Assembly (NCBI RefSeq): GCF_965641715.1
Contig: NZ_OZ282453.1
Reading direction: 5' to 3' (one strand)
DNA length: 64,000 nt
Source: Escherichia coli
GTDB lineage: Bacteria > Pseudomonadota > Gammaproteobacteria > Enterobacterales > Enterobacteriaceae
The position numbers and the translations under genes are program-made. Shown one piece after another: positions 4,854 to 47,608 of this stretch. The notes under the pieces were generated by a model, which worked only from the letters and a program-made list of their open reading frames with translations, ran no database searches and was not told where the DNA came from. Position 1 is the first letter of the stretch, and the number at the start of each line of letters is the position of its first letter.

Positions 4854-6047
4854 ATGACGAAAGTGACACGCGCAGTAATTGTGGGAGGCGGGATCGGCGG
4901 TGCGGCAACTGCGCTGTCACTGGCCCGCCTGGGGATCAAAGTGGTGCTGCTGGAAAAGGCGCATGAGATCGGTGAGATTGGCGCGGGCATCCAGTTGGGG
5001 CCAAATGCGTTTTCGGCGCTGGACAGCCTCGGCGTCGGCGAAGTTGCCCGCCAGCGCGCGGTGTTTACCGATCACATTACCATGATGGATGCGGTGAACG
5101 CCGAAGAAGTGGTGTGCATTGAAACCGGGCAGGCCTTTCGTGACCATTTCGGCGGCCCTTACGCGGTGATCCACCGGGTTGATATTCACGCCTCGGTGTG
5201 GGAAGCGGTACTGACGCATCCGGACGTGGAATATCACACCTCCACCAACGTCGTGGATATTCGCGAGACGGAAGACGATGTCACCGTGTTTGACGATCGC
5301 GGCAATAGCTGGACCGGCGATATTCTGATTGGCTGTGACGGCGTGAAGTCAGTGGTGCGCCAGAGCTTATTGGGCGATGCGCCGCGTGTCACCGGACATG
5401 TTGTCTACCGTGCGGTTATCGATCGTGCCGATATGCCGGAAGATTTGCGCATTAACGCACCGGTACTGTGGGCGGGGCCGCATTGTCACTTGGTGCATTA
5501 CCCTTTGCGCGGCGGCAAGCAGTATAACCTGGTGGTAACATTCCACAGCCGCCAGCAGGAAGAGTGGGGCGTGAAGGATGGTAGTAAAGAGGAAGTGCTC
5601 TCTTACTTTGAAGGGATTCACCCCCGTCCGCGCCAGATGTTGGATAAACCGACTTCATGGCGACGCTGGTCAACCGCTGACCGTGAACCGGTGGCGAAGT
5701 GGGGAACGAAGCGCATAACGCTTGTGGGCGATTCGGCCCATCCGGTGGCGCAATATATGGCGCAGGGAGCCTGTATGGCGCTGGAAGATGCAGTAACGCT
5801 GGGTAAGGCGCTGGCGCAGTGTGAGGGTGATGCGGCGCAAGCCTTTGCGCTGTATGAGTCGGTACGAATTCCGCGCACCGCGCGCATCGTCTGGTCGACC
5901 CGTGAAATGGGGCGGGTTTACCACGCCGCAGGGGTAGAACGCCAGGTACGTAATCTGCTGTGGAAAGGGAAATCGCAGGCAGAATTTTATCGCGGCATGG
6001 AGTGGTTGTACGGCTGGAAAGAAGATAACTGTTTGCAACCACGCTGA
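4854..6047 (+). CDS. 3-hydroxybenzoate 6-hydroxylase (FAD-dependent monooxygenase)
   Basis: 397 aa; N-terminal FAD fingerprint VIVGGGIGGAATALSLARLG; DG and GD FAD motifs (GCDGVKS, LVGDSAHP). Confidence 0.85.
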   Translation: MTKVTRAVIVGGGIGGAATALSLARLGIKVVLLEKAHEIGEIGAGIQLGPNAFSALDSLGVGEVARQRAVFTDHITMMDAVNAEEVVCIETGQAFRDHFGGPYAVIHRVDIHASVWEAVLTHPDVEYHTSTNVVDIRETEDDVTVFDDRGNSWTGDILIGCDGVKSVVRQSLLGDAPRVTGHVVYRAVIDRADMPEDLRINAPVLWAGPHCHLVHYPLRGGKQYNLVVTFHSRQQEEWGVKDGSKEEVLSYFEGIHPRPRQMLDKPTSWRRWSTADREPVAKWGTKRITLVGDSAHPVAQYMAQGACMALEDAVTLGKALAQCEGDAAQAFALYESVRIPRTARIVWSTREMGRVYHAAGVERQVRNLLWKGKSQAEFYRGMEWLYGWKEDNCLQPR

Positions 6048-6157
6048 GCACTTCTTCACCCAATCAGGCGGTCCCCTCGCCCCTTCGGGAGAGGGTTAGG
6101 GTGAGGGTAAAAATCTTGCCCGAATTAATCAGTAAGTCAGTTTGTCTGCAAACACAG

Positions 6158-6186
6158 GAGGCGCTAACATAGCGCCTCATTTTTTT
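6158..6186 (+). terminator. intrinsic terminator-like hairpin (GAGGCGCTA-aca-TAGCGCCTC) followed by ATTTTTTT, 12 nt before the dusC start
   Basis: perfect 9-bp inverted repeat plus T7 run read directly from the sequence. Confidence 0.6.
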
Positions 6187-6198
6187 GCGGGTGATGAT

Positions 6199-7149
6199 AT
6201 GCGTGTGTTACTGGCACCGATGGAGGGAGTGCTTGACTCTCTGGTGCGTGAATTGCTGACCGAAGTTAACGACTACGATCTGTGCATCACCGAGTTTGTC
6301 CGCGTGGTGGATCAACTGCTGCCGGTAAAAGTCTTTCATCGCATTTGCCCTGAGTTACAAAACGCCAGCCGGACACCATCCGGTACGCTGGTGCGCGTTC
6401 AGTTGTTAGGTCAGTTCCCACAATGGCTGGCAGAGAACGCCGCCCGTGCGGTGGAATTAGGTTCCTGGGGCGTGGATCTCAATTGCGGCTGCCCGTCGAA
6501 AACGGTTAACGGTAGCGGTGGTGGGGCGACGTTACTCAAAGATCCTGAACTCATCTACCAGGGTGCAAAAGCGATGCGCGAAGCTGTACCGGCGCATTTG
6601 CCCGTCAGCGTGAAAGTGCGTCTGGGCTGGGACAGCGGTGAGAAGAAATTTGAAATCGCCGATGCGGTTCAACAGGCTGGTGCTACGGAGCTGGTGGTGC
6701 ATGGACGGACAAAAGAGCAGGGTTACCGCGCGGAGCATATTGACTGGCAGGCGATTGGCGAGATTCGCCAGCGGCTGAATATTCCGGTGATTGCCAACGG
6801 CGAAATCTGGGACTGGCAGAGCGCGCAACAATGCATTGCGATCAGCGGCTGCGACGCAGTGATGATTGGTCGCGGGGCGCTCAATATTCCCAACCTGAGC
6901 CGGGTAGTAAAATATAACGAACCGCGAATGCCGTGGCCGGAGGTGGTTGCTTTGCTGCAAAAATATACCCGTCTGGAAAAGCAGGGCGATACCGGGTTAT
7001 ATCACGTAGCGCGGATTAAACAGTGGTTGAGTTATTTGCGTAAAGAATACGATGAAGCAACGGAATTATTTCAGCATGTTCGGGTGTTGAATAATTCCCC
7101 TGATATTGCAAGGGCTATTCAGGCAATTGATATCGATAAGCTGCGATAA
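6199..7149 (+). CDS. dusC: tRNA-dihydrouridine(16) synthase DusC
   Basis: translation from [13 protein letters not shown] matches remembered DusC (315 aa); longer ORF from 6142 would place the hairpin and T-run inside the CDS. Confidence 0.93.
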
Positions 7150-7536
7150 TAGTGGAATCGCAGTTTATCAGAGACAATGAATCGCTTATTCAGCGTCATC
7201 ATCTTGTTGCGCTCCTTTCATGAGCTAAGCCACATATTGCCACTGGCGCAAGGAGCGCGCAGGGGGAGGACAATCGCCTCCTCCCCCTGCACCCCCGGGC
7301 TCTGGCGAACAAAATCGCCGCTGCGCGGTACCTTCAGCTTATCCCCTTCGGCTACCGGGTCGGGCGCGAGGAAACGTCCTTGTAAGACGCGCCCTCAGCC
7401 CACATCCATGTGGGCTGCCCCGGCCTTCGGGGAACGCTTCAGCGATTTTGACGCCACCAACACCGGAGCTGTTTGCAAATCAAGTACACAAAATATCTAG
7501 TTCCTGACCTGACAACTTATATGCCATATCTGATTT

Positions 7537-7620
7537 TTAAAATATCATCTTAAATACGCCAGTCACCACCAGTAGCCCAATCAGGAAAATAATCAATACA
7601 GCCCAGAGTATAATTTTCAT
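7537..7620 (-). CDS. yohP: small membrane protein YohP (27 aa)
   Basis: minus-strand ORF translating to MKIILWAVLIIFLIGLLVVTGVFKMIF, verified codon by codon; AGGA RBS upstream; not in the ORF track (below length cutoff). Confidence 0.7.
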   Translation of the reverse strand: MKIILWAVLIIFLIGLLVVTGVFKMIF

Positions 7621-7843
7621 TGGCGTTCCTTTATTTGTGAGTGCTGAATAAGTATAGGAAAAAACGAAGCCCTTTGCCGTTATCCATAAACGATTAAGAT
7701 AAATCGGAAGATATCATTTACTTAGTGTATATTTTTCTGGATATGTCGTTTTATTGCTACTGATGTATTGCCACGCGGAACTAAAAAATATATCGCAACA
7801 CACGGTAATCTCCGCGCACCTTTTCTTACCTGATTATTCCCCC

Positions 7844-24923: not shown

Positions 24924-24954
24924 TTGGCGGTCATGTTTAGAGCATGACCGCCAA
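24924..24954. terminator. bidirectional terminator between yehS and yehR
   Basis: perfect 12-bp inverted repeat TTGGCGGTCATG / CATGACCGCCAA flanked by A-run and T-rich tract. Confidence 0.7.
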
Positions 24955-47566: not shown

Positions 47567-47608
47567 AAAGCCAAAATCATTCCTATGAATGATTTTGGCT
47601 TTTTTATT
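47567..47608 (+). terminator. intrinsic terminator after yehE
   Basis: 15-bp inverted repeat AAGCCAAAATCATTC / GAATGATTTTGGCTT followed by TTTTTT. Confidence 0.75.

Follow-up and report, generated by a model that had tools for sequence, protein, structure and literature searches.

In Escherichia coli strains that carry the catabolic mhb (3-hydroxybenzoate) operon, a hairpin followed by a run of T residues stands between the last gene of this operon and the start codon of dusC, which raises the question of how dusC is transcribed. The original prediction for this locus held that the terminator-like hairpin leaves no room for a promoter between itself and the gene. It left two possibilities: transcription of dusC begins at a promoter 5' of the hairpin, which would then act as an attenuator in the 5' UTR, or dusC depends on read-through from the catabolic operon. 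We analysed a stretch of 64,000 nucleotides comprising this locus (referred to below as the window), together with dusC upstream regions from across Enterobacterales and published K-12 expression data. The hairpin loop and the downstream half of the hairpin are most likely dusC's own promoter. The positions of the features discussed are collected in Table 1.

The hairpin between mhbM and dusC

The gene that precedes dusC, mhbM, is the last of the operon mhbT-gtdA-FAH-maiA-mhbM, the transcripts of which are directed towards the hairpin. In the annotation of strain EC1515, the whole operon is on the plus strand, FAH is a fumarylacetoacetate-hydrolase-family gene, and a gene for a LysR-type regulator lies upstream, beside the operon, on the minus strand. 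In K-12, the mhb cluster is absent and the divergent genes yohJ and dusC are separated by 238 bp.

A terminator scan of the hairpin returned nine pairs, six of them G-C, and a loop of 3 nt. The stem is followed on its 3' side by A6179, by seven T residues (6180-6186), by GCGGGTGATGAT (6187-6198) and by the dusC ATG at 6199, the gap between the end of the T-run and the ATG being 12 nt. The 41-nt hairpin stretch folds at -15.9 kcal/mol (z = -5.4), which none of 200 shuffles matched. Sequence and fold therefore bear out exactly the perfect 9-bp hairpin plus T7 that had been described 12 nt before the start codon. Such an arrangement is rare: a perfect stem of 8 bp or more with six or more T within 2 nt was found at three loci only in the whole 64-kb window, against a mean of 0.02 matches per window in composition-matched Markov simulations.

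The element has the features of an intrinsic terminator. Its stem is GC-rich and of a length within the usual range (about 5-14 bp), its loop is short, and its T7 run starts 1 nt past the stem (in most other genera, a run of T7-8 abuts the stem). It also lies downstream of a co-directional unit, 111 nt past the mhbM stop codon here and ~20 nt past it in genomes without the insert described below. The original prediction was thus right about the anatomy, a canonical intrinsic-terminator shape upstream of the correct start codon.

That the ATG at 6199 is the true start of dusC is supported by the conservation of the protein N-terminus. In a set of 80 species-level dusC loci across Enterobacterales (411 dusC loci were found in all), DusC aligned from residue 1 in 79 species and from residue 2 in the other. 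Furthermore, the distance between the T-run and the ATG varies between species by non-multiples of three. N-terminal conservation and this non-triplet variation in upstream length together exclude an in-frame TTG at 6142 as the dusC start. The predicted dusC leader contains a GGGUGA Shine-Dalgarno-like element.

Table 1. Features between mhbM and dusC, with their positions in the window and the basis of each assignment.
Feature	Position	Strand	Basis or remark
mhbM, 3-hydroxybenzoate 6-monooxygenase	4854..6047	+	ORF list; RefSeq annotation of the 99.8%-identical strain EC1515
Insert of ~104 bp	6054..6157		alignment with E. coli MSB1_4I, E69, K-12 and Citrobacter; boundary ambiguous by 2 nt
BoxC / PIT / 'TMECO' core motif	6074..6108	+	CCCTCGCCCCTTCGGGAGAGGGTTAGGGTGAGGGT; sequence and match to Table 1 of PMC4666352
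Candidate -35 hexamer TTGTCT	6142..6147	+	17 bp 5' of TAACAT; right end of the insert; TTTAAT in K-12 and Citrobacter
Probable terminator hairpin	6158-6178	+	perfect 9-bp stem, 3-nt loop: GAGGCGCTA-ACA-TAGCGCCTC
-10 hexamer TAACAT	6165..6170	+	TAnnAT conservation; Reg-Seq '-10' footprint, mapped to 6159-6171
GC-rich discriminator AGCGCCTC, equal to the stem 3' arm	6171..6178	+	conservation in species without mhbM
Probable region of dusC initiation, 6177-6180 (A6179 the likeliest start), and T7 6180-6186	6177..6186	+	usual spacing of 6-10 nt after the -10
K-12 dusC start equivalent	6189	+	10 nt 5' of the ATG; mapped via the K-12 annotation; Reg-Seq supplementary files 1 and 11
dusC, tRNA-dihydrouridine(16) synthase	6199..7149	+	ORF list, annotation, homologue alignment

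The hairpin is core DNA, not island DNA. The comparison that had been proposed as a check, of dusC upstream DNA in genomes lacking the catabolic cluster, found the hairpin and its T7 still in place in such genomes, for instance in K-12. There the hairpin reads AGGCGCTA-ACA-TAGCGCCT, with an identical T7 and an identical 12-nt gap; since G6158 is absent from K-12, the stem has 8 bp in that strain and 9 bp here. The hairpin is nearly universal in E. coli (5423 of 5426 complete genomes), and the 39-nt element that contains it was present as a single copy in these 5423 genomes, which speaks against a REP-like repeat or a regulon operator. The mhb island, by comparison, occurs in roughly 15% of the 5426 genomes, with the insert in 365-367 and without it in 448, and roughly 4600 genomes (roughly 85%) have no mhb operon. 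As to transcript ends, the accessible part of the E. coli Term-seq supplement (PMC7815308), which likewise concerns K-12 and thus a strain without the mhb operon, holds no entry near dusC, and the accessible part of the Cappable-seq paper supplement holds no coordinates near dusC.

In the window, similarity to island-less genomes resumes only at 6159 because of an extra insert of ~104 bp. This insert is confined to a strain group; between the mhbM stop and the hairpin, it has taken the place of an ancestral TAATCCGCTGACC(GG). In E. coli MSB1_4I and E69 and in Citrobacter, the mhbM stop runs straight into the K-12-like CTTTAATCC..., followed by the hairpin. The insert is one copy of a repeat dispersed through E. 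coli genomes, at a median of 14 related places in each; the copy in the argE-ppc intergenic region aligns with it over about 100 nt and has TTGTCA at the -35-equivalent position. The 35-nt core of the insert fits the type A(mm) motifs of Holder et al. 2015 (PMC4666352). It has the form that defines BoxC members, a motif of 34-37 nt, CCCTC(G/T)CCC...GGGAGAGGG-(TTA/CCG)-GGGTGAGGG, present in multiple intergenic copies.

The GC-rich imperfect palindrome that had been pointed out after the mhbM stop is thus real, and corresponds to this BoxC core (6074-6108). We considered it as a candidate terminator of the mhb operon and rejected it, since no T-run follows the folded palindrome and BoxC/PIT/TMECO elements are reported to have neither promoter nor terminator activity of their own (PMC4666352). 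The label of 'island junction' originally given to this site has to be divided: the hairpin itself belongs to the core genome, and the DNA adjoining it is a strain-specific BoxC repeat insert (6054-6157).

Candidate promoter elements across the hairpin

The hexamer TAACAT extends from the last two pairs of the stem across the loop to the base that opens the 3' arm. It has an A at position 2 and a T at position 6, as expected of the -10 element of sigma-70 promoters. Upstream of it, TTGTCT agrees with the -35 consensus at 4 of 6 positions and is separated from TAACAT by a 17-bp spacer, within the 16-18 bp of sigma-70 promoters. Both hexamers match the consensus at only four of six positions, and a promoter scan flagged neither. 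The insert removed the ancestral -35 hexamer, TTTAAT, yet its right end brings TTGTCT at the identical 17-bp spacing.

A motif containing the hairpin was found 5' of dusC, within 70 nt of the ATG, in 62 of the 80 Enterobacterales species. It consists of a hexamer resembling TTTAAT, TTTCAA or TTGTCT, a spacer of 17-18 bp, TAnnAT, the octamer [A/T]GCGC[C/G]TC, an optional A and a run of T5-8; the block formed by TAnnAT, the octamer and the T-run finishes 19-26 nt before the ATG. The -35 hexamer in other species is TTTAAT, TTTCAA or, at 18 bp, TTGTCT. In a gap-free alignment of 63 sequences, TAnnAT never varied at positions 1, 2, 5 and 6, whereas positions 3 and 4 were free (AC, CC, CT, TG, AG, TC and TT were all found). 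In the octamer that follows, four positions are invariant (C35, G36, T39 and C40 of the alignment), as are three T of the run. A hairpin would not be expected to fix any single base of its loop, and one is fixed; the hairpin alone therefore does not explain the pattern. Judged by these substitutions, TAnnAT with free positions 3 and 4 would be the signature of a sigma-70 -10 element and not that of a hairpin loop.

The integrity of the stem depended on the upstream neighbour. In the 20 species with a co-directional mhbM within 200 nt upstream, all nine of the nine pairs were present without exception, and the stem energies ranged from -15.9 to -20.2 kcal/mol. The median energy was -11.2 kcal/mol in the species with a divergent yohJ (n = 23) and -7.5 kcal/mol in those with other neighbours (n = 20), where pairing went down to 2 of 9. 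The difference between the species with mhbM upstream (20) and the others (43) gave p about 1e-9 in a Mann-Whitney test uncorrected for phylogeny. The contrast ran the same way within groups, where the stems with and without mhbM had energies of -16.7 to -18.6 versus -7.0 to -11.2 in Citrobacter, -16.6 to -18.5 versus -12.1 to -16.7 in Klebsiella/Raoultella, and -15.9 versus -12.1 to -16.0 in Escherichia.

The two arms of the stem were not equally conserved. In the species without mhbM, identity to the consensus was 78% for the 5' arm and 93% for the 3' arm. Serratia has an unrelated 5' arm and has kept TATCAT-TGCGCGTC-T6 as well as TTGTCT at 18 bp, the T-run thus being retained even in hairpin-less species. 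No covariation above that of shuffled alignments was detected in the stem (81.8% of cells paired; two double changes, a number reached by 80 of 500 shuffles), so the stem is maintained by sequence conservation. Compensatory change is not a strict requirement for intrinsic terminators. These sequence comparisons suggest that, where an operon lies upstream, the 5' arm is kept complementary to a 3' arm constrained for another reason, and that the stem behaves as a terminator retained only where an upstream operon needs ending.

Mutational data from K-12 bear on the promoter elements. In the Reg-Seq study (Ireland et al. 2020, PMC7567609), 160 bp were mutagenised around a presumed dusC start at 2230395 (minus strand), for which the authors state 'experimental evidence, the only site in the area', citing Raghavan et al. 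2011. The position equivalent to 2230395 in the window is downstream of both the hairpin and the T-run. A dusC start downstream of the hairpin is precisely what the original prediction had named as evidence against itself, and such a start is thus on record, in K-12. Mutations lowered expression at -48 to -42 in eight of ten growth conditions (at -54 to -46 and, as a merged region, -48 to -18 in the others), and at about -30 to -18 in all ten (PMC7567609). Mapped by their offset to 6189, these two footprints fall on 6141-6147, which is TTTAAT in K-12, and on 6159-6171, which ends in TAACAT; the automatic labels of Reg-Seq name the proximal footprint '-35' in two of the ten conditions (PMC7567609). 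The view that there is no room for a promoter thus overlooked one that overlaps the hairpin. All expression data are from K-12, which has neither the mhb island nor the insert, and it is from the K-12 literature alone that mutations in the hexamers are seen to lower expression, as they do in sigma-70 promoters.

Both Reg-Seq footprints lie ~12 bp 5' of the place expected for a start at 2230395. The real dusC start is therefore more likely at about 6177-6180, where A6179 is the only purine. The cited start, at the equivalent of 6189, is 19 nt after the -10 hexamer, which is too far; either the cited site or the -10 assignment is imprecise. We considered CATTTT (6178-6183) as a -10 element serving the published start at 6189, and rejected it since the Reg-Seq footprints lie 12 bp further upstream. 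In the datasets that are available in readable form, the published dusC starts are the one 19 nt after the -10 and another 100 nt 5' of the ATG, and none falls at 6176-6180.

Competing accounts of dusC transcription

We consider it probable that the element is a shared module, acting as the terminator of the mhb operon and as the promoter of dusC, so that neither read-through nor attenuation is needed for dusC. The mhb transcripts would run across the BoxC insert, fold into the stem with its U7 tract and end at about 6183-6187, as judged from the canonical anatomy of the hairpin and from the way in which stem integrity tracks the upstream neighbour. This termination would shield dusC when the catabolic operon is induced. 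In its double-stranded form, the same 45-bp segment would be a sigma-70 promoter, TTGTCT-17-TAACAT, in which the 17-bp spacer would include the 5' arm of the stem, the -10 element would sit in the hairpin loop and the 3' arm would be an 8-nt discriminator. Initiation would take place near A6179, the base beside the T7 run, and this run would double as terminator U-tract and initially transcribed region. The dusC mRNA would then begin past the stem, with a leader of ~20 nt (A-U7-GCGGGUGAUGAU), and the hairpin would for this reason not attenuate it. The GC-rich discriminator might confer sensitivity to growth rate or ppGpp, and the T-run might provide a slippage-prone start or a U-rich leader.

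We considered the possibility that dusC is transcribed from further upstream and that the hairpin and U7, located in its 5' UTR, prematurely end most transcripts. A K-12 start 100 nt 5' of the ATG (Kim 2012; 21 reads) would indeed place the hairpin in the 5' UTR, and a promoter, TCAACA-18-CATCAT, has been predicted next to yohJ (Shimada 2014). Yet the first of these is located in a K-12-type segment of 125 bp that is missing from the window, and the second is, in island-bearing strains, 6 kb of island away and directed into the antisense strand of the regulator gene. For Klebsiella dusC, Kim 2012 gives no start site. The region 6048-6198 contains no antiterminator pairing, no conserved leader ORF and no Rfam match (nothing was returned there by a scan of 5500-7800 with E up to 10); the small ORFs of the mhbM-dusC gap, considered as leader ORFs, were rejected as strain-specific insert DNA or frame artefacts. 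The region in which Reg-Seq mutations raise expression (-43 to -16) overlaps the stem, which would fit an attenuator, but mutations in the -35 and -10 elements lower expression, whereas only an increase would be expected from changes in the stem of an attenuator. The decay of the 5' arm in many species, with conservation of the rest of the motif, also argues against this account. We conclude that the element upstream of dusC is very unlikely to be a 5'-UTR attenuator. The other possibility left by the original prediction, that in island-bearing strains dusC lacks its own promoter and is supplied by transcripts escaping from the mhb operon, is in keeping with the co-directional operon and with the short gap between the mhbM stop and the dusC ATG (151 nt here, 61 nt in genomes without the insert). 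However, dusC is a conserved housekeeping gene for tRNA modification, whereas the mhb genes, which adjoin a gene for a LysR-type regulator, form an accessory catabolic operon. Roughly 4600 E. coli genomes, as well as many species with a divergent yohJ, have no mhb operon, and dusC is served there by the same motif. In addition, most transcripts reading through from mhb would be expected to end at a -15.9 kcal/mol stem with a U7 tract. We regard such a supply as extremely improbable. The choice between attenuation and read-through is thus not supported, positions 1, 2, 5 and 6 of TAnnAT being invariant in the 63 sequences while the 5' arm decays.

A third account assumes that the 8-3-8 palindrome AGGCGCTA-ACA-TAGCGCCT binds a putative dimeric repressor over the -10 element, the RNA hairpin being incidental. 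It is compatible with the promoter half of the dual-use model. Reg-Seq reports a region where mutations raise expression, -43 to -16 when merged and -35 to -20 when curated, and calls it a 'repressor' site without a factor being named (PMC7567609). Such a region could reflect either a protein operator or relief of termination. The palindrome is, in addition, kept by sequence conservation without compensatory changes, as an operator would be. Yet the expression-raising region is off-centre on the palindrome, reaching 13 bp beyond it on the left and missing most of the right arm. Moreover, in a weak promoter with two hexamers of 4/6 each, up-mutations towards the consensus produce the same expression-raising signature. 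The operator model does not predict that stem perfection tracks an upstream co-directional operon, and the presence of the palindrome once per genome means that there is no regulon. We therefore think this account unlikely. The shared terminator and promoter remains our preferred reading.

A further, more speculative idea concerns the control of this promoter. The block formed by TAnnAT, the GC-rich discriminator and T6-8 might be a nucleotide-sensing initiation module, combining UTP-dependent slippage with an open complex sensitive to ppGpp/DksA; we hold this to be rather doubtful. Slippage would accompany initiation beside the T-run, in the manner of codBA, upp or the productive class of PMC12709180. 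It could explain why the published 5' end is 3 nt past the T-run, and why the T-run is conserved in species without the hairpin. If this were true, the T-run of a terminator would couple production of a tRNA enzyme that modifies uridine to the UTP supply and the growth rate. The gene dusC is listed, together with ribosomal-protein genes and fis, among those down-regulated under growth-rate-dependent control (PMC6390033), and a literature search on dusC and ppGpp returned just this indirect classification. The listing fits the GC-rich discriminator and is suggestive.

Comparison with known systems

With its 9-bp GC-rich stem, 3-nt loop and T7 located 3' of a co-directional operon, the hairpin resembles the intrinsic (Rho-independent) terminators of Enterobacteria. 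Unlike in canonical terminators, the loop, the 3' arm and the U-tract are conserved as DNA far beyond the needs of termination, and outlast the 5' arm in some species. A classic parallel is that of frd and ampC: Grundstrom and Jaurin reportedly described, in 1982, an overlap of the frd operon terminator with the promoter/attenuator of E. coli ampC. The ampC promoter is upstream of the hairpin, inside frdD, so that the ampC leader includes the hairpin, which acts there as an attenuator. The two loci share the use of one hairpin and U-tract by the end of the upstream operon and by the regulatory region of the next gene. They differ in that the ampC hairpin is in the leader, as an attenuator of the kind originally proposed for dusC, whereas the dusC -10 element would be in the loop and the start after the stem.

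A second resemblance is to the stringent or growth-rate-regulated promoters. Both rrnB P1, which reads TATAAT-GCGCCACC-A, and the dusB-fis promoter belong to this class and have a GC-rich discriminator. The dusC element has a GC-rich discriminator of 8 nt as well, with an A as the ninth base after the -10, and it precedes a gene for the translation apparatus. Its hexamers are much weaker than theirs, however, and a dependence of dusC on ppGpp/DksA is hypothetical.

T-tracts in the start region are a key element for slippage and reiterative initiation in E. coli (PMC12709180). The dusC element may resemble reiterative-transcription promoters (pyrBI, codBA, upp-uraA and the productive class of PMC12709180) in having a T7 at or next to its inferred start; the run begins 1 nt after A6179, a start placed by spacing rather than by mapping. 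Unlike the genes of pyrimidine metabolism in that group, dusC is not a gene of pyrimidine biosynthesis or salvage, and it is not named in the main text of PMC12709180.

The BoxC core (6074-6108) shares with the intrastrand-triplex repeats BoxC/PIT/TMECO (PMC4666352) its dispersed, intergenic and multi-copy nature and its insertion/deletion polymorphism between strains. It differs from them in its context, as the core lies outside both the terminator and the -10 element and its flank happens to provide a -35 hexamer. The locus would be a case of a BoxC repeat insertion that rebuilt a -35 element at the original spacing.

These comparisons have several implications. Annotators who meet a textbook terminator right before a start codon need not conclude that the gene is attenuated or fed by read-through, since the promoter can lie within the terminator itself. 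The same reasoning offers a reinterpretation of the Reg-Seq call of a dusC repressor site with factor unknown, and suggests that the dusC start in the catalogues is misplaced by about 10-12 nt. One DNA segment would be under two constraints: the promoter half is kept across much of Enterobacterales, and the 5' arm only where an upstream co-directional operon needs terminating. The shared module predicts that genomes with the mhb island, roughly 15% of those of E. coli, still express dusC independently. Taken together, the dusC element probably belongs to two ordinary classes simultaneously, intrinsic terminators and sigma-70 promoters. A -10 element placed in the loop of the preceding operon's terminator, and conserved over much of the order while the 5' arm decays in particular lineages, adds a neat case of such overlap and is not a new kind of system.

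The BoxC-motif insert between mhbM and the hairpin

Between mhbM, the last gene of the operon on the mhb (3-hydroxybenzoate) island, and the hairpin preceding dusC lies an insert carrying a BoxC / PIT / TMECO type A motif, which has deleted the ancestral -35 region of the proposed dusC promoter. The hexamer TTGTCT, found 17 bp from the -10 element, comes from the right end of this insert. Among 5426 E. coli genomes, the insert was present in 365-367; the island without it was found in 448 genomes.

Positions of the features discussed (L001, K-12; L002, E. coli; L005, E. albertii NBRC 107761; L039, Salmonella enterica subsp. arizonae)
Feature	Position	Strand	Detail
Insert with BoxC / PIT / TMECO type A motif	window 6054-6157		~104 bp; core 6074-6108; between mhbM stop codon and hairpin
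Perfect stem, then at least six T	window 47570-47599	+	13 bp
Perfect stem, then at least six T	window 24924-24954	-	12 bp
TwoAYGGAY RNA match	window 7312-7451	-	25.9 bits (gathering score 43), E = 0.39
K-12-type spacer segment	L001 4440-4560	- (as read)	~125 bp
cacatcatgaattctgagcat block	L002 ~6025-6040		left island junction
dusC	L005 142-1089
dusC	L039 4001

Other terminator-like stems and RNA matches

Apart from the dusC hairpin, the 64-kb window holds just two loci where six or more T follow a perfect stem of 8 bp or longer, and both are presumably genuine intrinsic terminators. Downstream of dusC, near yohP as annotated in related strains, Rfam gave a weak match to the TwoAYGGAY RNA, which is probably due to chance.

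dusC upstream regions departing from the conserved block

In E. albertii NBRC 107761, a different hairpin (CCTCCGGC-tat-GCCGGAGG, then ATATTTATTT) occupies the same place, about 50 nt upstream of dusC. Both the TAnnAT element and the AGCGCCTC block are absent upstream of dusC in this strain, and the final 12 nt ahead of the ATG are identical to those of E. coli. In S. enterica subsp. arizonae, unrelated AT-rich DNA adjoins the dusC start codon; the absence of the conserved promoter/hairpin block upstream of the gene in this genome suggests that the region has been replaced.

Features of the yohJ-dusC spacer

Several genera (L010, L011, L020, L062, L070 and other loci) share a short block, cacatcatgaattctgagcat, about 110-130 nt upstream of dusC, adjoining the yohJ end of the spacer; E. 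coli has it at its left island junction as well. The block is possibly conserved as part of the region upstream of yohJ. Island-bearing strains lack a segment of the K-12-type yohJ-dusC spacer. In K-12 this segment holds a second hairpin, an imperfect one (AGAGGGATTGCAG..TGCAGCAATCCCTCT), as well as the distal start site that Kim 2012 reported for dusC at 100 nt before the ATG.
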